Position numbers and translations under genes: made by a program. Positions 3,409 through 62,192 of a DNA stretch of 64,000 nt are shown here, piece after piece. Source of the stretch: Escherichia virus TH58; sequence record MT446423.1; one strand, written 5' to 3'. The notes beneath the pieces are model-generated. The model saw nothing but the letters and a program-made list of their open reading frames with translations, did not search any database and was not told the origin of the DNA. How positions within the stretch are numbered: the first letter of the stretch is position 1; each line of letters opens with the position of its first letter.

Positions 3409-3439
3409 GTTTACAACGTATTTGGTATGTGATACTATA
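3409..3439 (+). promoter_or_regulatory. early promoter cassette (GTTTAC-N17-TGTGATACTATAG)
   Basis: Member of the dispersed GTTTAC/TGnTAYWRTA family; 30 nt upstream of ORF 3469. Confidence 0.5.
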
Positions 3440-3468
3440 GACTTATCAACTACAGAGGAGTAAACAAA

Positions 3469-3738
3469 ATGACTAAAGCACGTTTCTTACGAGATACTTT
3501 AAAAGTTCTGGAAGCTGAAGCAGTTAAGTTAGTAGAAAAATATGGTGCAAAAGTTAATGGTAATGCCTTCAACAAAGTATGGATGAAAGTTGATTCTGAA
3601 GCTCGAGCTAAAGGTTATTGGGCCACTGATAAACTTGCATCATTCAAAAACAAAGACGGCTCCCCAGCATACGTCCAAGAAGGTATGCCTAATTGGCAAA
3701 ATATTTTGAAAACTTACATCGAAATTGCACAGAAATAA
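3469..3738 (+). CDS. hypothetical early protein inserted between genes 24 and 23
   Basis: 89-aa ORF with GAGGAG RBS, own early promoter, opposite strand to flanking late genes. Confidence 0.45.
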   Translation: MTKARFLRDTLKVLEAEAVKLVEKYGAKVNGNAFNKVWMKVDSEARAKGYWATDKLASFKNKDGSPAYVQEGMPNWQNILKTYIEIAQK

Positions 3739-3748
3739 AACCAAAAAT

Positions 3749-3766
3749 GGGAGACCGAAGTCTCCC
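3749..3766 (-). terminator. hairpin GGGAGAC-CGAA-GTCTCCC; T-run on minus strand (gene 23 terminator)
   Basis: Stem-loop directly downstream of gp23 stop on minus strand followed by U-run in that orientation. Confidence 0.55.
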
Positions 3767-3795
3767 ATAAGGTTATGTATTTTAACGTTAAAGCA

Positions 3796-5364
3796 TTAAA
3801 TTCCTTTAACGTAGACGCGTCTAAAGTAAGCGTTCTTACCAAGGCTGTTCAGGATAGACGGCATACCGGACTGGATGCGAGCACCTGGAGCCTGCAGGGA
3901 ACTTTCAGCAAACGGGTTAACACCGATACCGTAACGAGTTTTAAAGCCCATTACCGGCTGGAAGTTCTTAGGATCGGAACCACGCAGTGGGGTAAGTGCA
4001 ACGTAAGGAGCATAGTAAATACCTGCATCCATTTCGTTAGCGCCTTTGTAACCAACGGTGAAGTAATCCTGTTTAGCATACTGGTCGATGTATACGCGGT
4101 ATTTACCGCCAAGTACACCGGCAAATACAGACTTAGTAGTGTCGGTATTAAAACCAGAAGCCAGACCCTGTGCAGCATAAGAAATACCAGTATCAACTGA
4201 AGCCAGTACGTTAACTACGTTACGGGAAGCGATAATGAAGTTACCTTCACCACGACCGGTTTGACGAGCAATTTCAACTGCTTCTTTATCAATCTGGAAC
4301 AACAGAGCTTTAAAGCTTTCACCGGCCCAACGAGCACCACGGATATCAATCGGGTCCTGGAAGTCAAATACACCAGCTTTAGAACCAACGATATTAGTCA
4401 TACCAGATTTACCAACCTGAGCGGAGTAGTTAATCCAGTCAACAACTTCACGGTTGATTTCCAGCATAATTTCAGTAGCAAGAATACCACTCAGTTCAGC
4501 ATCAGCATCCATACCGTGTACTGCACGGAGGTCTTGTGCCAATTCGATAGAGTAAGCTGCTTTCAGCTGACGAGATTTAGCTTCAATAACTTGTTTGTCG
4601 ATACGGAAGCCCATTTCGTTCCACGGGTTGTCGGTAGAACCATTGAAGCCTTCCTGAAGTTCAGCGATAGAAGTAGCCATACCTTCAGCGATTTCTACCA
4701 GTGCACCAGCTTCCATTTGTTTCTTAATTTCAGCGTCTAATTTAGTTGCATCGGTAGCGCCAGCATCAATTGTTACTACAGCGGAAGCTTGTAGATACAC
4801 AGTACCAGTGTCCTGGAAGAAGTGAGTATAGATATCACCTACAACGGTTTGTGTGCTATCAGCCAGAAGTGGGAATTTCTTAGCAGCACCCTGACCAGAG
4901 AACATCGCGTCCGGAGCATACATCGGATGGAAAGCTTCTTTAGCGTCAGCAGCGATAGGGTCTTTACCATATACTGCACGGAGAGCAAATACCTGACCGG
5001 TAGGGCTGTTCATAGGCTGAACACCACAAATATCAAAAGCGATCAGATTAGGAATAGCACGACGAACCATACCCATAACTGCTGGCCCAATTTGGGTTAC
5101 TGCACCAGAGGTTTGACCTGCTGCGATGTTCTGAGCATTATAACCATGGTCCCCACCAATTTCAGCTTCGGTCAAGAAAGAACCAAATGCCTGAGCGATT
5201 TTCTCGTCTTTATATTCAGGGGATACTTCGAAATCTTTTTCCTGGTTTTCGAAGATTTTAGCGATAATAGCCTGCTTGCTATTAGCGATTTCCGGCAGGC
5301 CTTCACCTTCCAGCAGTTCTTTCCATTTGTCTACGAGCTGAGCTTTAGTTTTGATAGTAGTCAT
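3796..5364 (-). CDS. 23: major capsid protein gp23
   Basis: 522 aa; N-terminus MTTIKTKAQLVDKWKELLEGEGLPEIANSKQAIIAKIFENQEKDFEVSPEY matches T4 gp23. Confidence 0.95.
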   Translation of the reverse strand: MTTIKTKAQLVDKWKELLEGEGLPEIANSKQAIIAKIFENQEKDFEVSPEYKDEKIAQAFGSFLTEAEIGGDHGYNAQNIAAGQTSGAVTQIGPAVMGMVRRAIPNLIAFDICGVQPMNSPTGQVFALRAVYGKDPIAADAKEAFHPMYAPDAMFSGQGAAKKFPLLADSTQTVVGDIYTHFFQDTGTVYLQASAVVTIDAGATDATKLDAEIKKQMEAGALVEIAEGMATSIAELQEGFNGSTDNPWNEMGFRIDKQVIEAKSRQLKAAYSIELAQDLRAVHGMDADAELSGILATEIMLEINREVVDWINYSAQVGKSGMTNIVGSKAGVFDFQDPIDIRGARWAGESFKALLFQIDKEAVEIARQTGRGEGNFIIASRNVVNVLASVDTGISYAAQGLASGFNTDTTKSVFAGVLGGKYRVYIDQYAKQDYFTVGYKGANEMDAGIYYAPYVALTPLRGSDPKNFQPVMGFKTRYGIGVNPFAESSLQAPGARIQSGMPSILNSLGKNAYFRRVYVKGI

Positions 5365-5381
5365 TTGTGTTAACCTTTAAA

Positions 5382-6194: not shown

Positions 6195-6224
6195 TTTAGT
6201 GTCCTGTGGTTTAGATTACATTAT

Positions 6225-6232
6225 TATTTATA
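6225..6232 (-). promoter_or_regulatory. late promoter TATAAATA for gene 22
   Basis: Minus-strand TATAAATA 31 nt upstream of gp22 ATG, overlapping gp21 stop. Confidence 0.6.
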
Positions 6233-35162: not shown

Positions 35163-35848
<686 letters not shown>

Positions 35849-35861
35849 TTTTCACAAAACA

Positions 35862-35891
35862 GTTTACATAAGGATGATGGTGTGTTACTAT
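35862..35891 (+). promoter_or_regulatory. early promoter cassette with inverted repeat (GGATGAT / ATCATCC)
   Basis: GTTTAC 35862-35867, TGTTACTAT 35883-35891; arms flank the -10. Confidence 0.5.
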
Positions 35892-35926
35892 CATCCTATC
35901 AAATAAACAACCAAATGGAACCTAAA

Positions 35927-36190
35927 ATGAAAACTTTCAACGAATTCATCTCAGAATCGTCTGGTGTGAAAATTAACAAAGCGGTTAATCAGGTTATTGC
36001 TGATATTCTTAATTTGTATAACATTGACTTAACTCCGCATATCACGCTTGGTAACAAACGAAACTTTTTTATATTTGACACATCCGAACTTGATGAAAAC
36101 CAGTTCAATAACATTCAACGTTTTGCGAATGATAAAGGTCTTCGACACGAGCCTGGCGGCTATAAAAAATACGCAATATATTTGAAATAA
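35927..36190 (+). CDS. internal protein (ipI-like) with capsid-targeting sequence
   Basis: N-terminus MKTFNEFISE matches the T4 internal-protein targeting motif MKTYQEFIAE; position of ipI. Confidence 0.55.
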   Translation: MKTFNEFISESSGVKINKAVNQVIADILNLYNIDLTPHITLGNKRNFFIFDTSELDENQFNNIQRFANDKGLRHEPGGYKKYAIYLK

Positions 36191-36192
36191 AG

Positions 36193-36223
36193 GTATACAA
36201 ACCTATAGGGATATGTTATAGTA
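36193..36223 (+). promoter_or_regulatory. early promoter cassette (GTATAC ... TGTTATAGTA)
   Basis: Family member; inverted repeat ATAGGG / CCTAT around the -10. Confidence 0.5.
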
Positions 36224-36259
36224 GTCCTATCAAAACAAATGAGTAAATGGAGAAATAAA

Positions 36260-37695: not shown

Positions 37696-37769
37696 GGCCC
37701 TGTAGCTCAATGGTTAGCAGCAGTCCCCTCATAAGGGAAAGGTTACCAGTTCGAATCTGGTCTGGGCCA
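37696..37769 (+). tRNA. tRNA with anticodon CAU (Met or Ile2)
   Basis: Acceptor GGCCCTG/CTGGGCC, T-arm ACCAG-TTCGAAT-CTGGT, anticodon loop CTCATAA; no encoded CCA; D-arm non-canonical. Confidence 0.6.
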
Positions 37770-37775
37770 TATATT

Positions 37776-37852
<77 letters not shown>

Positions 37853-38215: not shown

Positions 38216-38520
38216 GAAACCGGGTCGCTACCGGTAAGTCGTCGGACTGATGTTCCCTGGAGTATAGTTCCTCCCACAGTTTTACTGTGTTCTGGTTCTT
38301 TACTATCACAGCTGAAACGGCGCACAGAATTATCGATTCGAGGAAATATCTTTGCCGTAAGCCGAGTAGCGTTTTTGACGGAACGTTCGGATATGGTCGA
38401 GATATGGCCTTTTAAAAATATTGAGTAGCGTCAACTGCTTAATAACCGGGTTCGAATCCCGGCGTTTCGTACAAACACTTGCCTTAGCAGGTGGAACCCC
38501 GACAAGGTTGCCGCAAGGCA
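38216..38520 (+). ncRNA. candidate stable small RNA region with tRNA-like T-arm (possible T4 rnaC/rnaD analogue or decayed tRNA)
   Basis: No credible ORF; CCGGG-TTCGAAT-CCCGG T-arm at 38446-38462 with pairing acceptor-like arms (38398-38404 / 38463-38469); ends at a strong terminator. Confidence 0.25.
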
Positions 38521-38522
38521 TA

Positions 38523-38554
38523 GCCCCTTCCGAAAGGTTGGGGCTTTTTTTTTT
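38523..38554 (+). terminator. intrinsic terminator GCCCCTTCC-GAAA-GGTTGGGGC plus T10
   Basis: GNRA-loop hairpin followed by a 10-nt T-run; one of four near-identical copies. Confidence 0.75.
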
Positions 38555-38596
38555 GGCATAATAAATAGATAAGTTAATTAACTTAGGAAAAGCAAC

Positions 38597-39067: not shown

Positions 39068-39095
39068 GCCCCTTCCTTACGGTTGGGGCTTTTTG
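39068..39095 (+). terminator. intrinsic terminator GCCCCTTCC-TTAC-GGTTGGGGC plus T-run
   Basis: Near-identical copy of the 38523 terminator. Confidence 0.7.
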
Positions 39096-39127
39096 GTATC
39101 TAGGGCATAAAAATATTTCATAAAGAT

Positions 39128-39157
39128 GTTTACTTCTTCTAAGGACATGATACTATA
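39128..39157 (+). promoter_or_regulatory. early promoter cassette (GTTTAC ... TGATACTATAG)
   Basis: Family member upstream of ORF 39185. Confidence 0.5.
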
Positions 39158-39184
39158 GACTTATCAACCACATAGGAAAATGTT

Positions 39185-39688
39185 ATGAGTCTTTATACTG
39201 AACTGAATAAAAAATCTGAAGAATCTGCTGAAACTATTTTTAAAAACGTGCAAAAACGTATTTTAGAAAAGATGTATAACGCTGCATCTAAAGGTGAAAA
39301 ATCTTGCCGGTTCCCGATGAGGTGTTCCTCCGATTTATGCGCAAATACTATTGAATGGCTGGAAAGTGAAGGTCTTACGGTAGAGAAAAACCCGGCGACT
39401 TCTATTGACAGCGAATCATATATTAGTATTTCTTGGGATAAATCAAGGGTAGAAGAGAAAGATGGTGATTGGGTTGTAGATGTTAAAACTTCTGATGGTG
39501 GACGTTCTGTTGAAGTTTCAGCTGTAGTTAAAGGTACCCACGAACAAAGGACTTGGGGTTGGGGTGGTGAAGAAAAAGAAATTGTTCTTAGTGTGATTGC
39601 CAGGTCAACTAGTAATAAAATTGCACAAAGCATCATTGACGCTGCAATTGCTGAAGCAGAAAAAATTTGCAAAATTAAAAATAAATGA
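39185..39688 (+). CDS. hypothetical protein
   Basis: 167-aa ORF. Confidence 0.45.
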   Translation: MSLYTELNKKSEESAETIFKNVQKRILEKMYNAASKGEKSCRFPMRCSSDLCANTIEWLESEGLTVEKNPATSIDSESYISISWDKSRVEEKDGDWVVDVKTSDGGRSVEVSAVVKGTHEQRTWGWGGEEKEIVLSVIARSTSNKIAQSIIDAAIAEAEKICKIKNK

Positions 39689-39712
39689 TGTACAAACGCC
39701 AAGGATGGTGAT

Positions 39713-39994
39713 ATGATTACTCCACCAACAAATGAGGAAAACAAAATGTTTAAGTCTGATATCGAACAAGCTAAAGAAATCGCCTCAGAATACTTTGGTT
39801 CATTCTTACGTCTTTTTGGAGAAATTCCTGAATTTAATTCTGCATCAGAATCTGCGGAAGCTTTAAAGGCCATTGAAAATATTATTTTGGAAGACCTTAA
39901 ATCTTTCGACGGTTCTAATCTTTCGGCACTTCCTCGTATAATCGATATCCATGTTCTGGATAAAATGGAAGAGATTATTAATTCGTACAAATAA
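39713..39994 (+). CDS. hypothetical protein
   Basis: 93-aa ORF. Confidence 0.4.
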   Translation: MITPPTNEENKMFKSDIEQAKEIASEYFGSFLRLFGEIPEFNSASESAEALKAIENIILEDLKSFDGSNLSALPRIIDIHVLDKMEEIINSYK

Positions 39995-40024
39995 GTGTAC
40001 AAACTCTTGAGAGCAGAGTATAAT
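39995..40024 (+). promoter_or_regulatory. early promoter (GTGTAC-N18-TATAAT) with GAGAGC / GCTCTC inverted repeat
   Basis: -10 TATAAT 40019-40024 flanked by inverted repeat. Confidence 0.45.
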
Positions 40025-40066
40025 GCTCTCGTTGGATAATAAAACCACCAATTGAAAGGTAATAAT

Positions 40067-42603: not shown

Positions 42604-42801
42604 ATGTCTCGTGAATTAGATTGTGCTGTACGTACGGCAGTAGCTGCTCTGGAAAACCTGTTCCAAATTGCAACAGAAGAACGCGAAGAAGTTACATTAT
42701 GGATTGAAGATAACGCAGGTCTGAATCTCCAGAACGCAATCTCGGTATCAAATAATAGTATTACTGTTCAAGGCTGGGTATCATCTAGTTATTCTTGCTA
42801 A
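42604..42801 (+). CDS. paralog 3 of tandem trio (C-terminus QGWVSSSYSC)
   Basis: 65 aa. Confidence 0.45.
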   Translation: MSRELDCAVRTAVAALENLFQIATEEREEVTLWIEDNAGLNLQNAISVSNNSITVQGWVSSSYSC

Positions 42802-42805
42802 AACA

Positions 42806-42836
42806 GTTTACAACAAGATAGGGCTATGTTATAGTA
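42806..42836 (+). promoter_or_regulatory. early promoter cassette (GTTTAC ... TGTTATAGTA) with inverted repeat
   Basis: GATAGGGCT / AGTCCTATC arms around the -10. Confidence 0.5.
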
Positions 42837-42863
42837 GTCCTATCAAATTAAATGGAGTCCACA

Positions 42864-43131: not shown

Positions 43132-44088
43132 ATGATGTTAGTTATTGGTTCTCGTGCACTTCACTATCACGGTCTTATTGATTCTAATGCTATCAAAAAT
43201 AGTGACTGGGACTTTATTGCAGACCAAGGTTCTTGGAATGCATTTAAAAATCAAATGATGGGTGTATATGTTCATCAAGATAACCCTGATGTCCAAGTTT
43301 TCAAATGCTTCCATAACGGACGCGAAACTCATTTTGAAGCATATATTGTTCCGGCAATCACTAATGTCCGTGAATTAGTAGGTGAACTCACTCCTGAAGA
43401 TTTCACGTCTTCTTATGACCTTTTAAAATACGCCAAGAAAAATTTGTCTAAAGATCATTTGAACGGGTTTTACTGGGCAACTCCTGAGATGTGTCTTGCA
43501 ATTAAGATGTCTCATCGTTTCAAGAAAAATAATCCATTCTTTTTAAAGACTATGAACCATATTCAGTATCTTCGTGGTAAAGGTGTTACACTGAACGATG
43601 AACTTACTGAAATTATGCTGAAACGCCAGAAAGAAACCTTGAACTATGCTCACCCAGTTCTTGACACTTCTAAAAGTGCGTTCTTTAAAGATGACATCTA
43701 TACTTATGACCATGATACTATTCATGAAGCCATTGCACTAACAGACCGTCCAGCGTATACATTTTATATGAAAGACGGTTCTGAAGTCATGACCTCACGT
43801 GAGAAGTTCGAATCATTACCAGAAATGGTCAAATTGGCCGGTGTATATGAAGAATCATGTGTACTAGCATTAGAACGTTCTCAGATTCCTAATGACTTTA
43901 AAATTAACCCTGAAGCCAGTTTTATGATGGCATTGGAAAAAGTCTGTACAAGCATCACCTCCGGTTGGTTCCGTGAGTACGCATACGAGAACTATTATGA
44001 AGTAGTGGCTATGTATCATAAGCTCGGCAAAAATGATTACGTCAAACGTTTCAAACAAAATTTCCATATGGTAAAACCTTTCAAATAG
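43132..44088 (+). CDS. hypothetical protein, possible nucleotidyltransferase fold
   Basis: 318 aa; N-terminal VIGSRAL...SDWDFI loosely resembles a GS...DxD motif. Confidence 0.4.
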   Translation: MMLVIGSRALHYHGLIDSNAIKNSDWDFIADQGSWNAFKNQMMGVYVHQDNPDVQVFKCFHNGRETHFEAYIVPAITNVRELVGELTPEDFTSSYDLLKYAKKNLSKDHLNGFYWATPEMCLAIKMSHRFKKNNPFFLKTMNHIQYLRGKGVTLNDELTEIMLKRQKETLNYAHPVLDTSKSAFFKDDIYTYDHDTIHEAIALTDRPAYTFYMKDGSEVMTSREKFESLPEMVKLAGVYEESCVLALERSQIPNDFKINPEASFMMALEKVCTSITSGWFREYAYENYYEVVAMYHKLGKNDYVKRFKQNFHMVKPFK

Positions 44089-44100
44089 TTTCGCAAAGCT

Positions 44101-44131
44101 GTTTACAACATGATAGGACTATGTTATAGTA
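44101..44131 (+). promoter_or_regulatory. early promoter cassette (GTTTAC ... TGTTATAGTA) with inverted repeat
   Basis: ATAGGACT / AGTCCTAT arms around the -10. Confidence 0.5.
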
Positions 44132-44158
44132 GTCCTATTAAAACATGAGGAGAATATT

Positions 44159-46835: not shown

Positions 46836-47113
46836 AAACATATAGTGAATTTTTATCAGAATCTATTCTTAACGAAGCTACTGACACATTTGCAACTAAG
46901 CTAGGTGCAGCTTTGGTTGAAGCTGAAAGTCTATTAGCACGTATTTCTGAACTTGCTAGTAAGATAGATACTCGCAAATTTGAGCGCACCAGTGATATCG
47001 TTAAGCTTGAAGCCTTGTTGCGTATGTGCGATAAACCGGAAGAAATCGCTAAGAACGGCTCGCTGATGAAACAACGTCTTGAAAAATATATTTCAGGCGC
47101 TTCAGAAAAATAG
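46832..47113 (+). CDS. internal protein with capsid-targeting sequence
   Basis: N-terminus [10 protein letters not shown]; ATG overlaps e stop (ATGA). Confidence 0.55.
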
Positions 47114-47114
47114 T

Positions 47115-47145
47115 GTTTACTTCCTCCAAGGACTTTGATACTATA
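47115..47145 (+). promoter_or_regulatory. early promoter cassette with inverted repeat masking the denV RBS
   Basis: GTTTAC 47115-47120, TGATACTATA 47136-47145; TCCTCCAAG (47122-47130) pairs with CTTGGAGGA (47159-47167). Confidence 0.5.
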
Positions 47146-47171
47146 CATTCATCAACTACTTGGAGGAAATT

Positions 47172-47585: not shown

Positions 47586-47616
47586 GGAAAAAGGTTGCGA
47601 TGGTAAAGCTTAAACA

Positions 47617-47646
47617 GTTTACGCTTAAGTATTAATATGGTATAAT
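47617..47646 (+). promoter_or_regulatory. early promoter (GTTTAC-N18-TATAAT)
   Basis: Upstream of internal-protein gene 47677. Confidence 0.5.
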
Positions 47647-47676
47647 TACTCTATCAAAACAAACAAGGAAACAAAA

Positions 47677-47979
47677 ATGAAAACATATCAAGAATTTATT
47701 ACTGAAGCGCGAGTGAGTGCAGGTAAATTAGAAGCCGCTATAAATAAAAAGGCCTATTCATTTCACGATTTGTCCGATAAAGACCGTAAGAAACTTGTAA
47801 GCCTTTATATTGACAAAGAGCGTATTCTCGCTCTTCCTGGCGCTAATGAAGGTAAACAGGCCAAGCCTTTGAATGCTGTCGAAAAGAAAATTGATAACTT
47901 TGCTTCTAAATTCGGTATGTCTATGGATGACCTTCAGCAAGCGGCTATCGAAGCAGCTAAAGTAATTAAAGGTAAATAA
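47677..47979 (+). CDS. internal protein with capsid-targeting sequence
   Basis: N-terminus MKTYQEFITEARV; 100 aa. Confidence 0.55.
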   Translation: MKTYQEFITEARVSAGKLEAAINKKAYSFHDLSDKDRKKLVSLYIDKERILALPGANEGKQAKPLNAVEKKIDNFASKFGMSMDDLQQAAIEAAKVIKGK

Positions 47980-47981
47980 CA

Positions 47982-48010
47982 GTTTACTTTCTCCTAGAAT
48001 TGTGATAGTA
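47982..48010 (+). promoter_or_regulatory. early promoter cassette (GTTTAC ... TGTGATAGTA)
   Basis: Family member upstream of the denV-remnant ORF. Confidence 0.45.
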
Positions 48011-48058
48011 TATTCATAATTACTTGGATGGGTAAAATGACTCAATGAAAAAATTTTA

Positions 48059-48241
48059 ATGAAGCCACACTGGTATAAGTATTACGGCAAAAATATTTAC
48101 ATTCAAATAACATGGGAACAACCTGGACCTCATGATTCTATGAGGGATTCCCGCCAACCTGTAATAAGGTCGAGCCCAAGTGCGGTAATGGGTAAATACA
48201 GAAATGGACAATTCATGTGCCATGGAATGGCCCAAACCTAG
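48059..48241 (+). pseudogene. ghost of a denV 3' end (PHWYKYYGKNIY) fused to a short ORF
   Basis: Codons 3-14 (48065-48100) duplicate the denV C-terminus with many synonymous changes. Confidence 0.4.
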
Positions 48242-48245
48242 AGAG
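48154..48245 (+). repeat. direct repeat copy A (about 92 bp) upstream of the internal-protein gene
   Basis: CCAACCTGTAATAAGGTCGAGC...GCGGTAATGGG...ATGTGCCATGGAATGGCCCAAACCT repeated at 48651-48745. Confidence 0.6.
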
Positions 48246-48251
48246 AACAAA

Positions 48252-48581
48252 ATGAAAACATATCAAGAGTTTATCACTGAAGTTACATTATCTGCGGAAC
48301 AGAAAGCTGCTATCGAAGAAGCTAAAAATCCCAAAGTAACATATAAAGTAAATAGTAAAGGCGTTTTTGATGACTTGGTTCAAGACCCTGAATTGAAAAA
48401 AGCTCTTTCTAAAACTAATGCGTACTTTGCTCCTAAATTTAACACAGCCGGCGTACTTATTGGATTGGATGTATTCAACTCTAAAGGTGTTCTATCTAGT
48501 GCCTTTGGTTATGCCGCTAACAAAATTACCAAAGCCGCATGGGAATCCAATACCAAACAAGCTCAAAAGCCTAGAGTATAA
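48252..48581 (+). CDS. internal protein with capsid-targeting sequence
   Basis: N-terminus MKTYQEFITEVTL; 109 aa; flanked by direct repeats. Confidence 0.55.
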   Translation: MKTYQEFITEVTLSAEQKAAIEEAKNPKVTYKVNSKGVFDDLVQDPELKKALSKTNAYFAPKFNTAGVLIGLDVFNSKGVLSSAFGYAANKITKAAWESNTKQAQKPRV

Positions 48582-48650
48582 TTCTTGCCTAATAAAGGGA
48601 AACGCAACCTCTCCTTATGAACGTCGAGTCCTCTAAGTGATGTACCTTTT

Positions 48651-48745
48651 CCAACCTGTAATAAGGTCGAGCGCAATGCGGTAATGGGTTTACATAGCGA
48701 GTCGAAGGACCTAACATGTGCCACGGAATGGCCCAAACCTTAAGA
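48651..48745 (+). repeat. direct repeat copy B (decayed, 1-nt indel versus A)
   Basis: See copy A. Confidence 0.6.
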
Positions 48746-48753
48746 GAAATAAT

Positions 48754-50447: not shown

Positions 50448-50662
50448 TGGCTTCTACTATTACTGGGTTATTGGACTTTCAAGAAAAGGTCAACAAAATT
50501 TGTAGTGAATACTTAAAGTATCTTGAAGAAGACCTTGAAGATTGTAAGGAAGAAGGCGAAGAAGACTATGCTGACCAGCGTCGTCGCCAAATCGAAGAGA
50601 TGAGGCATTTCACCGATATAGTATCTAAAGAATCTTGGGCTTTAACTCCATTTTATCAATAA
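50447..50662 (+). CDS. hypothetical acidic protein (vs.3 position)
   Basis: 71-aa ORF. Confidence 0.4.
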   Translation: MASTITGLLDFQEKVNKICSEYLKYLEEDLEDCKEEGEEDYADQRRRQIEEMRHFTDIVSKESWALTPFYQ

Positions 50663-50666
50663 AGTA

Positions 50667-50696
50667 GTTTACTTCTCCTCTAGTTGTGTTACTATA
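50667..50696 (+). promoter_or_regulatory. early promoter cassette inside a 12-bp perfect inverted repeat that sequesters the regB RBS
   Basis: GTTTAC 50667-50672, TGTTACTATA 50687-50696; CTCCTCTAGTTG (50675-50686) pairs with CAACTAGAGGAG (50704-50715). Confidence 0.55.
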
Positions 50697-50723
50697 GAAC
50701 TGTCAACTAGAGGAGAAATCAAA

Positions 50724-52077: not shown

Positions 52078-52537
52078 AAACTATATCAAGGGCGATATTG
52101 TCGCCCTGTTTTCTAAAGGTAATAATATTGCTCATGGGTGTAATTGTTTTCATACAATGGGCGCCGGCGTGGCAGGACAATTAGCAAAGGCTTATCCAAA
52201 AATTTTAGAAGCCGATAAACTTCAAACCGAATTCGGAGACGAGTCTAAACTCGGGACTTATTCGGTTTATGAAAAATATTTTAAGACACATAAAGCTTAT
52301 TGCTTTAATCTTTATACACAGTTTGAGCCGGGACCTAATTTTGAGTACTCTGCTTTAATGAATTGTATAATAGAATTAAATGAATTCGGAAAGAATAAGA
52401 TAACAAAGCCTGTAATTTATATGCCAAGAATTGGTGCAGGTATCGGTGGTGGAAACTGGGATGTCATCGAAGAGATTTTAGATACGTATTCCACTAAACT
52501 AGAAATTGTGATTGTTGATTGGGAACCATTATTATGA
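52070..52537 (+). CDS. TARG1/OARD1-like macrodomain protein (T4 tk.4 position)
   Basis: KGDIVA...IAHGCNCFHTMGAGVAG and YMPRIGAGIGGGNWDVIEEIL align with TARG1 motifs; start uncertain (GTG 52070 with GAGGA RBS, or TTG 52040). Confidence 0.6.
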   Translation: MIKNYIKGDIVALFSKGNNIAHGCNCFHTMGAGVAGQLAKAYPKILEADKLQTEFGDESKLGTYSVYEKYFKTHKAYCFNLYTQFEPGPNFEYSALMNCIIELNEFGKNKITKPVIYMPRIGAGIGGGNWDVIEEILDTYSTKLEIVIVDWEPLL

Positions 52538-52746
52538 ATATACATTATCCGCATCCATATGACCCAAAGAATAAGGCAGTAATTATTCGACAATGGGAAC
52601 GCATTTGTCGTACCAAATGTCCAATTAATAGTCCACATGATGTAGATAAAGACTACATCGGAACATTCGTTGAATATACCTTTATTGATAAGAAAGGTCG
52701 TAAACAGCATGTAGAAGAATACTGCTTAAAGGTGACATGGTTATGA
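52534..52746 (+). CDS. hypothetical small protein (tk.3 position)
   Basis: About 70 aa from MNIHYPHPYD. Confidence 0.35.
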   Translation: MNIHYPHPYDPKNKAVIIRQWERICRTKCPINSPHDVDKDYIGTFVEYTFIDKKGRKQHVEEYCLKVTWL

Positions 52747-52928
52747 GTTTAAGCAAAGAACAAAAAGACAAACTCTTTTCTCTTATCCACGAAGTTATGG
52801 ATAAAAACAGTGAATTGGAAAAAGTTTGTGATGAATGCGGTCCTTTTAATGCAAACGAGTACGAAGAACTTTCTAAAGAATTCGATAATAAAGAACAAGA
52901 ACTTATTAATTATATAAATTCCTTATGA
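52737..52928 (+). CDS. hypothetical small acidic protein (tk.2 position)
   Basis: 63 aa; resembles the next ORF. Confidence 0.35.
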   Translation: MVMSLSKEQKDKLFSLIHEVMDKNSELEKVCDECGPFNANEYEELSKEFDNKEQELINYINSL

Positions 52929-53122
52929 TTACTCGCGAACAAAAGAACGAAATATTATTTTTAGTTGGTGAAATTATTAGTTTAGAAAAGGATTTGTCTT
53001 TTGAATTATCTTCTGATTATGGAGATGCCGAAACATATTACGAATTAGTAAAATCTATCGATAAAGCTGAAAATGATTTAGAAACATATTTAGAAAATTT
53101 AACTAAGGACTCTTATGGCTAG
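52925..53122 (+). CDS. hypothetical small acidic protein (tk.1 position)
   Basis: 65 aa. Confidence 0.35.
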   Translation: MITREQKNEILFLVGEIISLEKDLSFELSSDYGDAETYYELVKSIDKAENDLETYLENLTKDSYG

Positions 53123-54259: not shown

Positions 54260-54287
54260 GCCCCTTCCGAAAGGTTGGGGCTTTTTG
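54260..54287 (+). terminator. intrinsic terminator GCCCCTTCC-GAAA-GGTTGGGGC plus T-run
   Basis: Copy 3 of the repeated terminator, directly after rI. Confidence 0.7.
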
Positions 54288-54295
54288 TATAAATA
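54288..54295 (+). promoter_or_regulatory. late promoter TATAAATA
   Basis: Perfect TATAAATA 25 nt upstream of ORF 54320. Confidence 0.5.
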
Positions 54296-54319: not shown

Positions 54320-54877
54320 ATGAAATTTTTAAAATATGTAAGTTGGGTTGTTCTTGTTCCTATAGATTGGATCGCAGCGATTTTAGCAATTATTCTAGCG
54401 CCATTTGTAGTTCCATTCCATAGTGAAAAAACCGGTAAACTACCTTATGGCTTTAACTGGATGATGACTTACGATAATCCTATCGATGGTGACCGCGGCC
54501 ATGTTGAACGTTGGTCTAAAATACGTAAAATTCCTGTTATAGGTAAATATGCTCAACGCGTAGCTTGGCTATGGCGCAACAAAGCATATAATTTTTCGTA
54601 TCATGTTTTAGGTCGCGAAGCTTCATCAGAATGGCATTATAAAGGCAACGCCGAAACTAAATCTGGATCTCCTGATCCAGCACATCATGGATATCTTTTA
54701 GTTTGGAACGAGTCGGCATGGGGATTATTCGCTGCTATACCTTATCTTAAGGTTGGTGGTATTACATTTTATCTGCGTGTTTACTGTGGTTGGAAACTTA
54801 AGAGTCTTTTGAGTCGTCCTATTCCACGCGCAATGCTTTCATTCCATATCAACCCTTTACGATATTACAAAAACTAA
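54320..54877 (+). CDS. membrane protein
   Basis: 185 aa with N-terminal TM helix, Trp/Tyr-rich; late promoter upstream. Confidence 0.45.
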   Translation: MKFLKYVSWVVLVPIDWIAAILAIILAPFVVPFHSEKTGKLPYGFNWMMTYDNPIDGDRGHVERWSKIRKIPVIGKYAQRVAWLWRNKAYNFSYHVLGREASSEWHYKGNAETKSGSPDPAHHGYLLVWNESAWGLFAAIPYLKVGGITFYLRVYCGWKLKSLLSRPIPRAMLSFHINPLRYYKN

Positions 54878-54882
54878 TCAAA

Positions 54883-54910
54883 GCCCCTTCCGAAAGGTTG
54901 GGGCTTTTTG
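54883..54910 (+). terminator. intrinsic terminator GCCCCTTCC-GAAA-GGTTGGGGC plus T-run
   Basis: Copy 4 of the repeated terminator. Confidence 0.7.
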
Positions 54911-54920
54911 GCATCTATCA

Positions 54921-54950
54921 GTTTACTTCTCCTCAGGTTGTGTTATAGTA
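54921..54950 (+). promoter_or_regulatory. early promoter cassette (GTTTAC ... TGTTATAGTA) with CTCCTC / GAGGAG inverted repeat
   Basis: 3' arm GAGGAG (54965-54970) is the RBS of ORF 54977. Confidence 0.5.
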
Positions 54951-54976
54951 GTCCTTACTTAATAGAGGAGAATGTT

Positions 54977-55156
54977 ATGACACGTAAAGAAAAAATTTCT
55001 AAGTTAATGTTTTTGATTGAAGAGTATGCTAATGCGGTGTCTGATTGGGAAAATGCTCATGGTTGTGAAGATGGAGACATCGACATTAACAGAGCTATGA
55101 AAAAGATGGCTGAAGCCCACACCGAATTGCAAATGTATGTTAACGAGATTATGTGA
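54977..55156 (+). CDS. small acidic protein
   Basis: 59 aa from MTRKEKISKL. Confidence 0.35.
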   Translation: MTRKEKISKLMFLIEEYANAVSDWENAHGCEDGDIDINRAMKKMAEAHTELQMYVNEIM

Positions 55157-55420: not shown

Positions 55421-55635
55421 TGTTATATGACCCAAGCGGTTGTTCTGAAGATGGTGTGATTGTTCTGGAGCCTGAGCATCCAGTTGGTGATGTATATCGC
55501 ACCGTTGAAGTATGCGAATGTAATTTCGTTGAAGGTAATACTGGCGGAATTTCCATTGAGCAAGATGATGATGTTATTTACCTGGATGCAAGCCAAGTTG
55601 AAGAGCTTTATCAACATTTAAAACACAATCGGTAG
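55420..55635 (+). CDS. small protein (MLYDPSGCSEDGV family)
   Basis: 71 aa; paralog of 55164 ORF. Confidence 0.35.
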   Translation: MLYDPSGCSEDGVIVLEPEHPVGDVYRTVEVCECNFVEGNTGGISIEQDDDVIYLDASQVEELYQHLKHNR

Positions 55636-55665
55636 TTTACGTTTTGGTAGGACTATGATATAGTA
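55635..55665 (+). promoter_or_regulatory. early promoter cassette (GTTTAC ... TGATATAGTA) with GGTAGGACT / AATCCTACC inverted repeat
   Basis: Family member. Confidence 0.5.
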
Positions 55666-55692
55666 ATCCTACCAAAACAAATGGAGAACAAA

Positions 55693-55979: not shown

Positions 55980-55980
55980 T

Positions 55981-56511: not shown

Positions 56512-56520
56512 GGAATTATT

Positions 56521-56994: not shown

Positions 56995-58004
56995 TGAAAA
57001 CAATTGTGAAAACTTATTTTGGTAGCCACCTTTATGGAACGTCTACCCCAGAATCTGACGTCGATTTTAAAGAAATTTATGTCCCTCATGCTCGTGATAT
57101 CTTGACCGGTAACGTTAAAGAACACATGAGCAAGAACACGAATAACACATCTTCTAAGAACACAAAAGACGACGTGGACCATGAGTTGTATAGTCTCAAA
57201 TATTTCTTTAAACTAGCTGCTGAAGGCGAAACCGTTGCTCTGGACATGATTCACACACCGGCTGAAATGGTGGTTAAATCTGATTTACCTGATGTATGGA
57301 AATTTATCCAAGACAATCGTTCACGCTTCTATACAACTAACATGAAAGCCTATTTAGGGTACGTCCGTAAGCAAGCTTCTAAATATGGTGTTAAGGGTTC
57401 TCGTCTGGCTGCTCTGCGTGGTGTACTGGCTATCGTTAACCAGATTCCTGAACAATGGGTTGATTATCAAGAAGGAATCCCTGATAGACTTCGTCGTACT
57501 AAAGTAGAAGATATCAAACACAGACTCCCTGAAAACGAGTTCTGTGAATGGGTATTCCATAACCATGAGAAAACAGGCCCACAAACGTTCTATACTGTTC
57601 TCGGACGTAAGTACCAAACAACGTTATCAATTACAGAGCTCAAGCAATCTCTGAATAAGCTTGATGCTGAATATGGTGAACGTGCTCGTAAGGCAGAAGC
57701 TAACGAAGGTATTGACTGGAAAGCATTGAGTCATGCATGTCGTGGTGGACTTCAACTATTAGAAATTTACAAAACCGGCGACCTGGTTTACCCACTTCAG
57801 GATGCTCCATTTATTCTCGATGTTAAGCTTGGTAAACATACGTTTAAAACTGTACAAGAATTCCTAGAAGATATCGTTGACCAAGTTGAACATGCGTCAG
57901 AACAAGCTGCCAAGAATGGTATGCAGCAAAAAGTAGATATGAGTTTCTGGGATGACTTCCTTGAACAAGTTTACTTAGAAAACCACAATTCGTACTATAA
58001 ATGA
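56991..58004 (+). CDS. Pol-beta superfamily nucleotidyltransferase
   Basis: 337 aa; N-terminal motif YFGSHLYGTSTPESDVDF (GS-x10-DxD). Confidence 0.6.
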   Translation: MMKTIVKTYFGSHLYGTSTPESDVDFKEIYVPHARDILTGNVKEHMSKNTNNTSSKNTKDDVDHELYSLKYFFKLAAEGETVALDMIHTPAEMVVKSDLPDVWKFIQDNRSRFYTTNMKAYLGYVRKQASKYGVKGSRLAALRGVLAIVNQIPEQWVDYQEGIPDRLRRTKVEDIKHRLPENEFCEWVFHNHEKTGPQTFYTVLGRKYQTTLSITELKQSLNKLDAEYGERARKAEANEGIDWKALSHACRGGLQLLEIYKTGDLVYPLQDAPFILDVKLGKHTFKTVQEFLEDIVDQVEHASEQAAKNGMQQKVDMSFWDDFLEQVYLENHNSYYK

Positions 58005-58007
58005 TAA

Positions 58008-58024
58008 GGGCCTTCGGGCCCTTT
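58008..58024 (+). terminator. hairpin GGGCC-TTCG-GGCCC plus TTT
   Basis: Stem-loop directly after the nucleotidyltransferase stop. Confidence 0.5.
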
Positions 58025-58051
58025 AGGGGGTCAAAATATTTTTAAAAAGTA

Positions 58052-58081
58052 GTGTACATGCTTTTAGGATATGTTATTATA
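58052..58081 (+). promoter_or_regulatory. early promoter cassette (GTGTAC ... TGTTATTATA)
   Basis: Family member upstream of the AAA+ gene. Confidence 0.5.
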
Positions 58082-58118
58082 GACCTATCGAAACGAAATG
58101 AGTAAATTGGAGAATAAA

Positions 58119-59099: not shown

Positions 59100-59237
59100 G
59101 CTTATAGGAAGTTCTGAGGTAACAAAAGCCATAAAGATGAATAATCATATGGCTTACCTCAAAGAAGGACACCAGGAACCTACTGAGGGCATAGAAATAT
59201 TTAAAAATAATGATGTACAAATCAAAGAGGATATGTT

Positions 59238-59525
59238 ATGGATTTTATGCAAAAAATTAAAGCCGCAGTCGAACTGTATGCTCATCGTATGGTTAGTTCT
59301 ACGATGCAATATAGCGAGGATGTTCGCCAGGACTCTTCCTTGAAAGGAAAAACTAAAGCCTTAATTACCTTAGATCGTTTGCAAAAGAATGCCATAGAGA
59401 TGCTCCAGTACGACAAGGATGCATATAAGAAAGAACAGGAAGAGAAACTTAAATCTGAAAAATTACAGAAAATTCCGAAATCGGTTTGGTTCAGTGGAAA
59501 AAATACCGAAAAAAGTTTCTTTTAG
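59238..59525 (+). CDS. hypothetical protein
   Basis: 95-aa lysine-rich ORF with AAGAGG RBS. Confidence 0.4.
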   Translation: MDFMQKIKAAVELYAHRMVSSTMQYSEDVRQDSSLKGKTKALITLDRLQKNAIEMLQYDKDAYKKEQEEKLKSEKLQKIPKSVWFSGKNTEKSFF

Positions 59526-59527
59526 TT

Positions 59528-59557
59528 GTTTACAAGGTCTATGGTTATGTTATTATA
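59528..59557 (+). promoter_or_regulatory. early promoter cassette (GTTTAC ... TGTTATTATA)
   Basis: Family member; GGAGG RBS follows. Confidence 0.5.
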
Positions 59558-59583
59558 GACCTATCAACTACTGGAGGTAAAAC

Positions 59584-60112
59584 ATGAACGCTAAAGATAT
59601 TTTCAACCTGGTAAATTATAACGACGGTAAATTTAAATCTGAAGCACAAAGCAAGTTCTTTAACGACGTTGCTTATGGTAACGAGATTACCGTGGACGGA
59701 GGTCAGATTTTCAAATCTCGCTGGAATTGGATTGCTATCATCGATTCAGTTGGAATTGTGGAAGTCTACAAAAACACTAGCAAAAAAACGTACATTATTC
59801 TGGTCTCGTGAAACTAACGAGCAGTACAAAAAGGATAAAGCATCTCGTTTATCCAAAGTAACCCAGGAAGATATCGAGTTTATCAAGAAAGATATCGAGA
59901 TGTACGAAAATTTAATCGCTGAAGACCAGGCAGTACTCGATAAGTTTGATGAAATTAAAGCTTCTCGTGAAATCCCTGACTTCATGAAAGAAACAGTAAA
60001 CGAACGATACGCTCTCACTTCAGAACGTATTGCAAACTATACAAAACAGAAAGCAGAACGTATTAGTACTCTTCGGAAATTTGAAGAACGTTTAAAGACG
60101 GTTCACGCATAA
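59584..60112 (+). pseudogene. early ORF split between two frames at an A7 tract
   Basis: Frame 1 (59584-59811) has the RBS and start; frame 2 is open from 59669 to 60112 without its own RBS; A7 at 59782-59788. Confidence 0.4.
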
Positions 60113-60115
60113 ACG

Positions 60116-60139
60116 CTTTACCCAAGGACGGGTTATAAT
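60116..60139 (+). promoter_or_regulatory. possible early promoter (CTTTAC ... TATAAT, short spacer)
   Basis: Truncated relative of the 61171 and 62163 promoters. Confidence 0.3.
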
Positions 60140-60174
60140 GGTTTTGAGTTCCAATTCAATCTGAGGAAATAGTT

Positions 60175-61170
60175 ATGAGCATTACATCTGATGCGGTAAA
60201 ACATGAAATTAACGGTTTATGTGCTTCACAGATTAAAGTGTGGTTTAAAGACCATAATGATCGCAGAGCACTTAATTATGAGCAAATTGCTATCCAAGTT
60301 CATCAATTACTGACTAGTAAATTTGATTTTCATATGCCATCTGAAATCTATACTAATCTACCGCGAGCGCTTATTAAAGCGTGTAAAGGTTACGGAAAAT
60401 CAATGGCCGATGGAATCTTCAGCGCGCTGAATAAACTTAACGTTCTATCGATGATTAACTCTAACAACATCCTGCGTAATCTAGGACGTACTGATTTGTT
60501 CGGTCGTGAACAGTGTAAAATGCCTTTGAAATGGATTGTTGCTCATCTTAACGAGAACCAAACACGTTTTCTGGCCGTATCAGCACGCTTACAAATGGGC
60601 CTAGATCGTCAGATGAACTTTAAAACTCATCCACGTTATTCAGGTTCAACAGACTTTTATAAATGTGAGCTTCAAAAGGTTGCAGGTAAAACTGTCTTAG
60701 TAGTTCGTGTAACGTTTGAAGGACGACGTCAAGGATATTTTGACCTAATCGGCTCCGGTCTTAAACATTGTGGATTTATTGTCGAAGTTGATATCAAGCG
60801 AGACGGCATTGGATACCGTATTGGATATGTTTGTACTCTTAAAGAAGAGATTTCAGGACCAGCACCAGGACTAAAAGACGTTAGATATAAAGACGAGCTC
60901 GTTGAAGAAATAAAAGAAGTTGAATATGATATCAACCAAGAAGATGCTCTTAAAGACCTTATTGATGAACTAAACCAAGACGTTATTCCGGTTCAGAAAT
61001 TTGAATCAAAACATGCTGAGCAAATCAAATACTTTGAAGCTTTGATTAACGAACTTAATGTAACTATTCAACAGACTGACGACGAAATCTCACGATTAGC
61101 AGGCTTAAACGGTAAAAATAAAACAGAACGAGCTAATCTTATTCAAGTAGTAAAACTTCTTAAGGAATGA
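60175..61170 (+). CDS. hypothetical protein with C-terminal coiled coil
   Basis: 331-aa ORF. Confidence 0.45.
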   Translation: MSITSDAVKHEINGLCASQIKVWFKDHNDRRALNYEQIAIQVHQLLTSKFDFHMPSEIYTNLPRALIKACKGYGKSMADGIFSALNKLNVLSMINSNNILRNLGRTDLFGREQCKMPLKWIVAHLNENQTRFLAVSARLQMGLDRQMNFKTHPRYSGSTDFYKCELQKVAGKTVLVVRVTFEGRRQGYFDLIGSGLKHCGFIVEVDIKRDGIGYRIGYVCTLKEEISGPAPGLKDVRYKDELVEEIKEVEYDINQEDALKDLIDELNQDVIPVQKFESKHAEQIKYFEALINELNVTIQQTDDEISRLAGLNGKNKTERANLIQVVKLLKE

Positions 61171-61199
61171 TGTACAACCAAGGATGGTTGGAGTATAAT
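61171..61199 (+). promoter_or_regulatory. early promoter (TGTACA-N17-TATAAT) with CAACCA / TGGTTG inverted repeat
   Basis: Near-identical to the 62163 promoter. Confidence 0.45.
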
Positions 61200-61225
61200 A
61201 AATTTTTCAACATGAGGAATATAAA

Positions 61226-62158
61226 ATGGCTTCTATTACACGTAGAGAACTTATCAAAGAATTTACCTCGAACGCATATACCCCAGGTCCTAATCCTATC
61301 CGTATGCCTGTAAAGACTCCTGAAGAGATTGAGGAAGTCTGTTCATATTATGGGATTACTTCTCGTAAGTTTACTCAATTTGAATGCGTTACTAACACAC
61401 CCGTTAAAGAGTTCATTAAAAATGGTGAGTTCAGCCGTTTATTAGCCAAACAGAAACTTCGTAATTTTTGTATCGGCGGCTACGGACAATATTTTGCTAA
61501 ACAGTTCAGAAATAACCTTAACAATCTGATGGCCATTGCTTCTCGTATTCGTCCTCAAGCAATTAACATGAAACATTTGAAATATACTTACGATAAGTTA
61601 GAAATCATGGTTATCAGTGAGAATGAGTTCACTCTTACGTATAAACCTAAGAATGATAACGTTGCTCGTGTATTCCACCAAGCGTTGGAAGTTTTAGGTG
61701 ATAATATCCACCAGATTAAAGCAATTTATTCTCGTGAGCTTAATATTATCGACCCTATCAAGAATAAGGGCCATATCGCTATCCAGGCTCGTGTATCTGT
61801 TGGTAAAAAGGTTCCTGCTCCATGGTGGCACAAAGACTCTGAATACTATCAAAATCTTAAAAAGGAAAATGCAACGTTCGAAGCGTCAATTATTGTTGCC
61901 CCAACTATCGGTAAGATTAATGCAGCTTCAGCACAACCTGTTATGTTTAATGGCACGCCGTCGACTAAACTGGAAATCTCTAATGGTCTTCTTCCTGCCG
62001 AAGATTACTATTATAATCAAATCAAAGCCACTGTGGACCAACTGTCTGTTGAACTTGACAAAGCACAAGCTAAACTTCGTGATGCTCAACAAGTAGTTAC
62101 CAAGCTCCAGTTGCAGTACTCTAAACTTTTTACCGCAATGAATGCGTTAAAATCATAA
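61226..62158 (+). CDS. hypothetical protein with C-terminal coiled coil
   Basis: 310-aa ORF. Confidence 0.45.
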   Translation: MASITRRELIKEFTSNAYTPGPNPIRMPVKTPEEIEEVCSYYGITSRKFTQFECVTNTPVKEFIKNGEFSRLLAKQKLRNFCIGGYGQYFAKQFRNNLNNLMAIASRIRPQAINMKHLKYTYDKLEIMVISENEFTLTYKPKNDNVARVFHQALEVLGDNIHQIKAIYSRELNIIDPIKNKGHIAIQARVSVGKKVPAPWWHKDSEYYQNLKKENATFEASIIVAPTIGKINAASAQPVMFNGTPSTKLEISNGLLPAEDYYYNQIKATVDQLSVELDKAQAKLRDAQQVVTKLQLQYSKLFTAMNALKS

Positions 62159-62162
62159 ATCA

Positions 62163-62192
62163 GTTTACAACCAAGGATGGTTGGAGTATAAT
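62163..62192 (+). promoter_or_regulatory. early promoter (GTTTACA-N17-TATAAT) with CAACCA / TGGTTG inverted repeat
   Basis: Consensus -35 and -10 with 17-nt spacer. Confidence 0.55.

Follow-up and report, generated by a model that had tools for sequence, protein, structure and literature searches.

A dispersed family of short regulatory cassettes is found in a stretch of 64,000 nucleotides (nt) of Escherichia virus TH58 DNA (sequence record MT446423.1; hereafter, the window). These cassettes belong to a class that has already been described (Arbiol 2010; Comeau 2014; Nolan 2006), the promoter-early stem-loops (PeSLs), rediscovered here in a new isolate. Very probably, they are sigma-70 early promoters, about half of them with a hairpin that would form only in RNA read through from upstream, and homologous recombination takes place at them, as proposed in the PeSL model. 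This is a known design, in which strong early promoters double as recombination linkers that shuffle accessory genes in T4-like phages, and for annotation it is of value in delimiting the plastic zones of the genome and its transcription units. Going slightly beyond the literature examined, comparison of the sequences suggests that the hairpins embedded in the promoters are conserved sense-strand RNA structures and that translation of regB and denV could be tied to their own early transcript. Such hairpin gating bears on the timing and insulation of early genes in T-even phages.

Early promoters in the TH58 genome

The window comes from an RB69-like T-even phage of the genus Mosigvirus, about 95-96% identical to its closest isolates (MM02, SHSML-52-1, SF, Shf125875 and mogra) in a megablast of the 35-48 kb and 48-64 kb regions, which matched hundreds of T-even phage genomes. 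Its layout, taken from the annotation of relatives, comprises late virion genes on the minus strand from 1 to 32.3 kb (23, 24, wac, 12, 11, 10 ... 5, 53) and, on the plus strand from 32.4 kb, genes 4, 2, 3, 1, 57A, 57B, ipI, trna.x, two tRNAs, e.x, nudE and e, followed by denV, internal head proteins, vs.x, regB, vs, tk, rI, mobD.x and nrdC.x. The T4 gene order is kept on this strand (57B-ipI-tRNA-e.x-nudE-e-denV-vs-regB-tk-rI-nrdC.x), and it is because of this layout that the plus strand is taken as the early-transcribed one.

Eighteen copies had been listed in a preliminary description of this DNA. Each of them has TGnTAnnnT as its -10 box and, as its -35 box, GTTTAC or a sequence that differs from it by one mismatch; the copy at 60116 is degraded (12-nt spacer), and 17 of the 18 are genuine T4-type early promoters, all on the early-transcription strand, where none is expected by chance. 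They are made up of an AT-rich upstream (UP) region, GTTTAC, TGn and TAnnnT, about 28 nt before the ATG of a small early gene, so that gene and promoter together would constitute a self-contained expression module. The gap of about 17 nt proposed between GTTTAC and TG has to be corrected to 14 or 15 nt, as the literal pattern has no match; searched as GTTTAC-N13-17-TGNTAYWRT, the motif gives 12 exact matches, all on the plus strand, against 0.04 expected. Building a motif model and scanning with it had also been suggested, and a two-block weight matrix (block 1, UP region and -35 box; block 2, TGn, -10 box and 12 nt) finds about 20 sites of at least 16 bits on the plus strand, none on the minus strand and none in locally shuffled sequence. 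Of the 18 seed sites, 17 have leave-one-out scores of 9 to 45 bits; the remaining one, 63143, scores 0.9 bits. The matrix recovered a good copy that had been overlooked, 39688 (ATGTAC...TGaTATGAT, ATG at 39746), and the copy placed at 61171 is actually an ATGTAC at 61170. Sites 565 and 63143 are doubtful as extra copies: the latter (63143-63172, plus strand) is an exact GTTTAC-N15-TGtTATAAT within the last part of a coding region, with its -10 box abutting the next ATG and flanks unlike those of the family. Site 41916 was dropped as a copy (less than 10 bits, within a gene).

The ATG lies 26-47 nt from the -10 box overall and 26-30 nt from it in most copies (commonest, 27-28 nt). The upstream gene usually ends, with its stop codon, 0-13 nt 5' of the -35 box, so that the UP region overlaps the 3' end of that gene. 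Seventeen copies fall within 35.8-62.2 kb and one between genes 24 and 23; the matrix scan found no copy between 3409 and 35862, a stretch of late virion genes. The genes downstream of the cassettes code for internal head proteins or have no known function. Orthologous T4 early-promoter sites exist for ipI, trna.4, e.6, ipIII, denV, regB, mobD.2 and nrdC.8, and by this homology the cassettes are predicted to be active promoters. No promoter features are annotated in the T4 GenBank and RefSeq records, and no Rfam family covers the cassette elements.

Breakpoints and probable recombination at the cassettes

Breakpoints were mapped by aligning the window to the five Mosigvirus genomes named above. 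Seventeen distinct insertion, deletion or replacement events were found, all of them between 35.9 and 62.0 kb; the aligned late region together with genes 4 to 57B (from ~17-19 kb to 35.9 kb) contains no insertion, deletion or replacement with respect to the five relatives. The idea was not refuted on the association of cassettes with gene-content breakpoints, which had been put forward as a point on which it could fail: breakpoints are concentrated at the cassettes, and several joints lie inside them. Thirteen of 36 clusters of edges fall in cassette spans, which represent 5.6% of the region (binomial p = 4e-8), and a breakpoint is present at 10 of 16 cassette junctions versus 11 of 50 other junctions (Fisher p = 0.004). 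Presence and absence of cassettes also differ among the genomes, as each relative has 3-6 cassettes missing from the window, all of them in relative-only segments.

Four events leave a hybrid cassette with the joint inside it. At 44101, SHSML-52-1 and MM02 have an extra 201-nt gene flanked by two cassettes, which the window replaces by one hybrid cassette whose crossover lies within the -35 box, GT(T/G)TACAA (shared stretch, 8 nt). Similarly, at 58052 an extra gene lies between two cassettes in SHSML-52-1, SF and Shf125875, and the window has a hybrid with the crossover in 58071-58094 (24 nt shared), the joint being within ATGTTATTATAGACCTATC. At 39688, homology to all five relatives stops exactly at the boundary between spacer and -10 box and is found again from 39989, 6 nt 5' of the -35 box of 39995; from this gap it follows that the gene at 39746-39994 was swapped between two cassettes. 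The fourth joint, with SF and mogra, is at 35894-35950 (57 nt shared), in the 5' leader and the capsid-targeting codons common to internal head protein genes. The swapped genes code for internal head proteins or are of unknown function. The position of the joints thus varies within the element (-35 box, spacer/-10 boundary, -10/+1, 5' leader, repeated terminator), which is in keeping with general homologous recombination between short shared stretches and not with a site-specific enzyme. Near-identical sequences of 40-100 nt, all in one orientation, are repeated between non-essential genes, and for this reason the homologous recombination system of the phage would be expected to cross over within the cassettes, and such crossovers would delete, insert or swap the intervening genes, as in the PeSL model.

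A different explanation is that these are ordinary early promoters and nothing else, alike because of a strong consensus, that edges coincide with them since the only viable rearrangements keep gene and promoter units together, and that recombination is illegitimate, by "moron"-type accretion, and not guided by the cassette. In its favour, cassettes are not significantly richer in breakpoints than other intergenic gaps of at least 40 nt (10 of 16 versus 5 of 13, p = 0.18), and several edges lie at cassette-free junctions or in genes (37094, 37606, 50452, 52537-53104, 57410-57567 and 61884-61979). Part of the association could indeed come from selection for intact expression units. Nevertheless, the explanation is unlikely in view of the four hybrid cassettes, of another event flanked by a 27-nt terminator repeat, and of an identical 27-nt core that precedes two unrelated genes.

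Hairpins embedded in the promoters

The -10 box had been described as lying between inverted-repeat arms in most copies, which proved true of about half of them: a helix of at least 7 base pairs (bp) brackets or overlaps the -10 box in nine of 18 (35862, 39995, 42806, 44101, 47115, 50667, 54921, 55635 and 59528), or in 9-11 when two borderline helices (47982 and 3409) are considered. Such helices occur in 19% of between-copy chimeras and in 10% of random 58-nt windows. Three more copies have an upstream terminator, and about five have neither. Two helix geometries predominate, in which the spacer would pair either with the -10/+1 region or with the Shine-Dalgarno (SD) sequence; in six copies (35862, 39995, 42806, 44101, 55635 and 59528) the spacer holds the 5' arm, and the 3' arm begins where the -10 box ends and extends to about +10.

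Selection on these structures was assessed by exchanging 5' and 3' halves between copies and comparing the folding energies with the native ones. In the window, the native mean is -10.9 kcal/mol versus -7.4 +/- 0.65 for exchanged sequences, and 0 of 2000 permutations match the native value. The same holds for 13 T4 early promoters (-12.3 versus -7.95 +/- 0.78; 0 of 5000 permutations) and for 125 distinct cassette-like sequences sampled from IMG/VR (-8.7 versus -6.7, p = 2e-5). The helix of regB is kept with altered arms in its orthologues (CTAGTTG/CAACTAG in the window, CTTGACTG/CAGTTAAG in T4, and CTTTATG/CATAAAG and TGTAAG/CTTACA in more distant phages), as is that of denV (CCAAG/CTTGG, TGTAG/CTACA, GTTTG/CAAAC and TGTG/CACA). 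The arms therefore co-vary within copies, in T4 and in orthologues, and this is evidence that the hairpins are selected. For regB, these comparisons were made by folding each sequence singly and comparing the arms; RNAalifold on a MAFFT alignment of the regB leaders recovered the SD/anti-SD core only, the alignment being out of structural register. A second geometry is found for denV (IMG/VR loci L149, L154-L156, L164-L171 and L177), in which SD and AUG pair with the -10 box and discriminator instead of the spacer; the own-promoter transcript would still miss most of the 5' arm, so the predicted consequence is the same. A search for relatives of mobD.1, intended to sample the 55635 cassette, returned one locus only.

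Mismatches indicate the strand on which the structure is read. When helices were found by a scorer that treats all non-Watson-Crick pairs alike, single mismatches were G.T in 17 cases and A.C in 3 in seven genomes, and 15 and 0 in the IMG/VR sample, although equal numbers are predicted from composition. This bias is what would be expected of a structure read on the sense strand and tolerant of G.U, that is, of RNA read through from upstream, and it points to hairpins in such RNA. As the 5' arm lies upstream of the start site of the own promoter, own-promoter transcripts would lack it, and therefore only read-through RNA would fold. Three hairpin-free cassettes are consistent with this role: two lie behind a true terminator and a third (3409) has no co-directional upstream gene. 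A classical terminator is found upstream of only three cassettes, 39128 and 54921 (both the repeated terminator) and 58052. The hairpins themselves were rejected as intrinsic terminators because no T-run follows the 3' arm in any of the nine, and they are unlikely to be efficient ones; they would rather insulate upstream RNA or stabilise the 3' ends of upstream cistrons than terminate.

It is highly improbable that the repeats work at the DNA level, either as cruciforms or single-strand hairpins that stall replication or draw a nuclease or recombinase, creating hot spots, or as dimeric-regulator operators for early-promoter shut-off: although the shut-off mechanism is unknown, the repeats overlap the -10 box, and the stem-loop has been speculated to be the target of a DNA-binding protein (Arbiol et al., PMC2839356), arm sequences are wholly different between copies and orthologues with pairing kept, which argues against a sequence-specific protein site, a cruciform would be hurt equally by G.T and A.C (32 versus 3), and the joints lie at differing places of the cassette (-35, spacer/-10, -10/+1, leader and terminator) and not at a single site. 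The protein-operator reading in particular was rejected on the lack of conservation of the arms.

Predicted occlusion of ribosome-binding sites

According to the preliminary description, the 3' arm frequently contains the GGAG ribosome-binding site of the next gene; this is the case for 47115 (denV), 50667 (regB) and 54921, and for these three only. For regB (12 distinct sequences), the SD is predicted to be paired with a probability of 0.97 in read-through RNA and of 0.21 in the own transcript; the values for denV (29 distinct sequences) are 0.95 and 0.45. The corresponding window values are 1.0 and 0.23 for regB, 0.96 and 0.16 for the gene starting at 54977, and 1.0 and 0.63 for denV; gene e, the positive control, gives 1.0, its known structure being present in the window. 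The layout of the gene e gate (5' arm before the start of the inner promoter, 3' arm over SD/AUG, helix conserved) is found in regB, denV and 54977. In these three genes, the hairpin would hide the ribosome-binding site in read-through RNA, so that translation could take place only from the own, short-lived early transcript and might be confined to the first 2-3 minutes of infection. A general role of the early-promoter hairpins as compensatorily maintained RNA-level gates across T4-like phages, with the ribosome-binding site buried at regB, denV and a few others and the remaining hairpins being insulators or 3' stabilisers, is proposed tentatively, with somewhat more doubt than confidence.

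Several observations weigh against the interpretation of the cassettes given above. Half of the copies have no convincing hairpin. Many of the G.T mismatches correspond to one ATGGT/ACTAT position whose partner is the constrained -10 box, which reduces the independent cases to about 10 versus 2. The absence of a T-run sets these hairpins apart from the efficient terminators reported for the RB49/phi1 stem-loops. Pairing of the SD is common anyway (mean 0.64; at least 0.9 in 11 of 41 genes without a cassette), and the case for gating therefore rests on the compensatory changes in the arms of the 12 regB and 29 denV orthologous sequences and not on the folding score. Finally, start sites, termination and effects on translation are all predictions from sequence.

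Relation to elements described in other phages

PeSLs were published as a class of elements composed of a sigma-70-type early promoter, a stem-loop and an SD with ATG, located in hyperplastic regions and at insertions and deletions (Arbiol 2010, PMC2839356). The assignment of the cassettes to this class, made in the preliminary description, is upheld by the sequence-level defining features, less clearly so for the hairpin, which is present in only about half of the copies and rarely has the ribosome-binding site in its stem. A sigma-70-type early promoter (spacer of 17 +/- 1) with AT-rich upstream sequence is present at 17 of the 18 listed sites and at 39688, SD and start codon are at the 3' end, many copies lie in hyperplastic regions before non-essential genes or ORFans, and close relatives differ by insertions, deletions and replacements at the elements, with chimeric ones left behind.

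The closest match is found in the T-even pair PST/T4, whose PeSLs have the consensus TTTACW-N17-TAYWAT and AT-rich stems (Comeau, Arbiol & Krisch 2014, PMC4122927). They share with the window the promoter consensus, AT-rich stems variable in sequence and size (their stem AGNA...TCNT matches AGGA...TCCT here), the SD and ATG at the 3' end, a hyperplastic location beside internal head protein genes, insertions, deletions and replacements at the elements, and degraded copies near insertions and deletions. They differ in the genus, the window being from a Mosigvirus, and in that PST stems are just 5' of the promoter (figure legend), whereas those of the window are mostly within it (spacer to +10, or spacer to SD). 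AT-rich "PeSL-like" elements had also been noted at T-even internal-protein loci (Repoila 1994, cited in Arbiol 2010, PMC2839356).

The PeSLs of phi1/RB49, about 50 per genome, mediate modular shuffling and form mini-circles, which have been demonstrated for RB49/phi1 only (PMC2839356). The composite of promoter, stem-loop and SD, a location that is for the most part hyperplastic and 5' of ORFans, a stem that may overlap the -10 box or lie between it and the -35 box, and the deletion of a gene between two elements with one chimeric element remaining are common to these phages and the window. In contrast, RB49 has near-perfect TTGACA/TATAAT boxes and G/C-rich stems (Gn-loop-Cn) that were shown to terminate like rrnB T1, while the window has a GTTTAC -35 box with TGn, AT-rich stems and no T-run. 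T-even elements were in fact termed analogues, not homologues, of the RB49 PeSLs by Arbiol et al. (PMC2839356).

With respect to the promoters, the consensus of T4 early promoters, with an A-rich UP element and GTTTAC at -36 to -31 (UP/-35/TGn/-10; Hinton 2010, PMC2988021), and their position before early genes are identical to those of the window, and 57 early promoters of the same consensus were predicted in RB69, upstream of early genes and novel open reading frames (ORFs) (Nolan et al. 2006, PMC1524935). The searchable text of PMC2988021 and PMC1524935 makes no mention of inverted repeats, stem-loops or hairpins, nor of recombination at promoters. As for the gates, hairpins that sequester a ribosome-binding site and enclose a promoter are known for T4 e, soc, 49 and I-TevI (Uzan & Miller 2010, PMC3014915). 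In both sets the read-through RNA is predicted or known to fold over SD/AUG, the promoter is within the 5'-arm region and the short transcript is, or would be, translatable; the inner promoter of the T4 genes is late and translation is delayed, whereas that of regB, denV and 54977 is early. None of these three appears in the list of such hairpin genes in PMC3014915, where only a typical early promoter and a self-cleaved SD are described for regB.

Individual cassettes

All the features in this section are on the plus strand. Cassette 3409 (3389-3468; -35 3409-3414, -10 3433-3438, ATG 3469; leave-one-out score, 35.5 bits) has only a weak mismatched helix and precedes an 89-amino-acid (aa) ORF of unknown function (phrog_6003) between late genes 24 and 23. 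This ORF has its own terminator (3735-3766; whole unit, 3469-3766) and is on the strand opposite to genes 24 and 23.

Cassette 35862 (35842-35926; -10 35886-35891, ATG 35927, internal head protein) carries the hairpin AGGATGATGGT / ACTATCATCCT (35871-35881 / 35887-35897), with one G.T. The next copy, 36193 (GTATAC; 36173-36259; -10 36217-36222, ATG 36260), has an imperfect helix only and is the right edge of the replacement of an internal head protein gene. Cassette 39128 is composite (39068-39184), with a D6-family intrinsic terminator (39068-39094) followed by a promoter without internal hairpin (-10 39151-39156, ATG 39185), and SF breakpoints fall at 39104 and 39179. The chimeric cassette 39688 spans 39668-39745 (-35 ATGTAC; TGa and TATGAT, the latter at 39712-39717), and cassette 39995 (GTGTAC; 39975-40066; -10 40019-40024, ATG 40067, e.6) has the hairpin GAGAGCA / TGCTCTC (40009-40015 / 40024-40030).

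Hairpins of the same kind are found in cassettes 42806 (42786-42863; -10 42830-42835, ATG 42864; GATAGGGCTA / TAGTCCTATC, 42817-42826 / 42835-42844, one G.T) and 44101 (44081-44158; -10 44125-44130, ATG 44159; 44111-44121 / 44130-44140). The denV cassette, 47115 (47095-47171; -10 47139-47144, ATG 47172), has a long-range helix that spans the SD (TTCCTCCAAG / CTTGGAGGAA, 47121-47130 / 47159-47168). No hairpin is present in cassette 47617 (47597-47676; -10 47641-47646), which precedes an internal head protein gene with a capsid-targeting leader (ATG 47677) and has breakpoints at 47592/47602 and 47665-47699. The borderline helix of cassette 47982 (47962-48058; -10 48006-48011), AATTGTGA / TCATAATT, is perfect in the T4 orthologue, and a window-only segment (48037-48714) begins 25 nt past its -10 box.

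The regB cassette, 50667 (50647-50723; -10 50690-50695, ATG 50724), has a 14-bp helix that spans the SD (TTCTCCTCTAGTTG / CAACTAGAGGAGAA, 50673-50686 / 50704-50717), and homology to relatives resumes at 50656. Cassette 54921 is composite (54883-54976), with the D6 terminator (54883-54909) before the promoter (-10 54944-54949, ATG 54977) and a helix, TTCTCCTC / GAGGAGAA (54927-54934 / 54965-54972), that also spans the SD. In cassette 55635 (55615-55692; -10 55659-55664, ATG 55693) the helix has 15 positions with one C.A (55641-55655 / 55664-55678), and homology to relatives resumes at 55594. Cassette 58052 (GTGTAC; 58008-58118; -10 58075-58080, ATG 58119) is composite as well, its promoter being preceded by the terminator GGGCCTTCGGGCCCTTT (58008-58024).

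Cassette 59528 (59508-59583; -10 59551-59556, ATG 59584) has the hairpin AGGTCTAT / ATAGACCT (59535-59542 / 59555-59562) and precedes nrdC.8. The nrdC.8 orthologue (59584-60112), a single 528-nt gene in relatives, is split here into two ORFs (59584-59811 and 59669-60112) that overlap and are read in different frames, suggestive of either a frameshift or an error in sequencing. The degraded copy at 60116-60139 (CTTTAC-N12-TATAAT) was missed by the matrix and is kin to the 61170/62163 subfamily; it is predicted to be non-functional because a 12-nt spacer is too short for a sigma-70 promoter. Cassette 61170 (ATGTAC; 61150-61225; -10 61194-61199, ATG 61226; repeat family D15) has a small stem in the spacer, AACCA-AGGA-TGGTT, and the 27-nt core at 61173-61199 is identical to 62166-62192 of cassette 62163 (62143-62220; -10 62187-62192, ATG 62221). 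The genes downstream of these two cassettes are unrelated, and tandem gene duplication was ruled out as the origin of the identical cores, the downstream proteins having no similarity.

Other repeats and neighbouring genes

The cassette families are the chief dispersed repeats of the window, the others being the 27-nt terminator and the capsid-targeting leader of internal head proteins. The terminator hairpin (D6 family, GCCCCTTCC-loop-GGTTGGGGCTTTTT) has four copies, at 38523-38549, 39068-39094, 54260-54286 and 54883-54909, two of which are directly 5' of early-promoter cassettes, and this second dispersed repeat is also a recombination joint. The copy at 54260-54286 (plus strand) and that at 54883-54909 are direct repeats that flank the gene at 54320-54877 (185 aa, DUF7338, phrog_2143), missing from all five relatives. 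This gene is preceded at 54288 by TATAAATA, the T4 late-promoter consensus, and a helix (ATATCCT/AGGATAT) is predicted over its SD, in a layout like that of gene e.

On the 3' side of the two tRNA genes (37696-37852), a 381-nt stretch (38216-38596) has no called ORF and no Rfam match; in T4, the small RNAs rnaC and rnaD occupy the equivalent region.

The capsid-targeting leader, ATGAAAAC(A/T)T(A/T)...GAATT, is found in five copies (35924, 38594, 46829, 47674 and 48249) and contains two recombination joints, 35894-35950 and 47665-47699. The window-only segment at 48037-48714 comprises an ORF of 60 aa and an additional internal-head-protein-like gene (48252-48581, phrog_3966); the capsid-targeting leader of this gene and that of the gene at 47677 share 94% identity. 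A stretch of about 100 nt, present in duplicate (48154-48247 and 48651-48748), bounds the segment.

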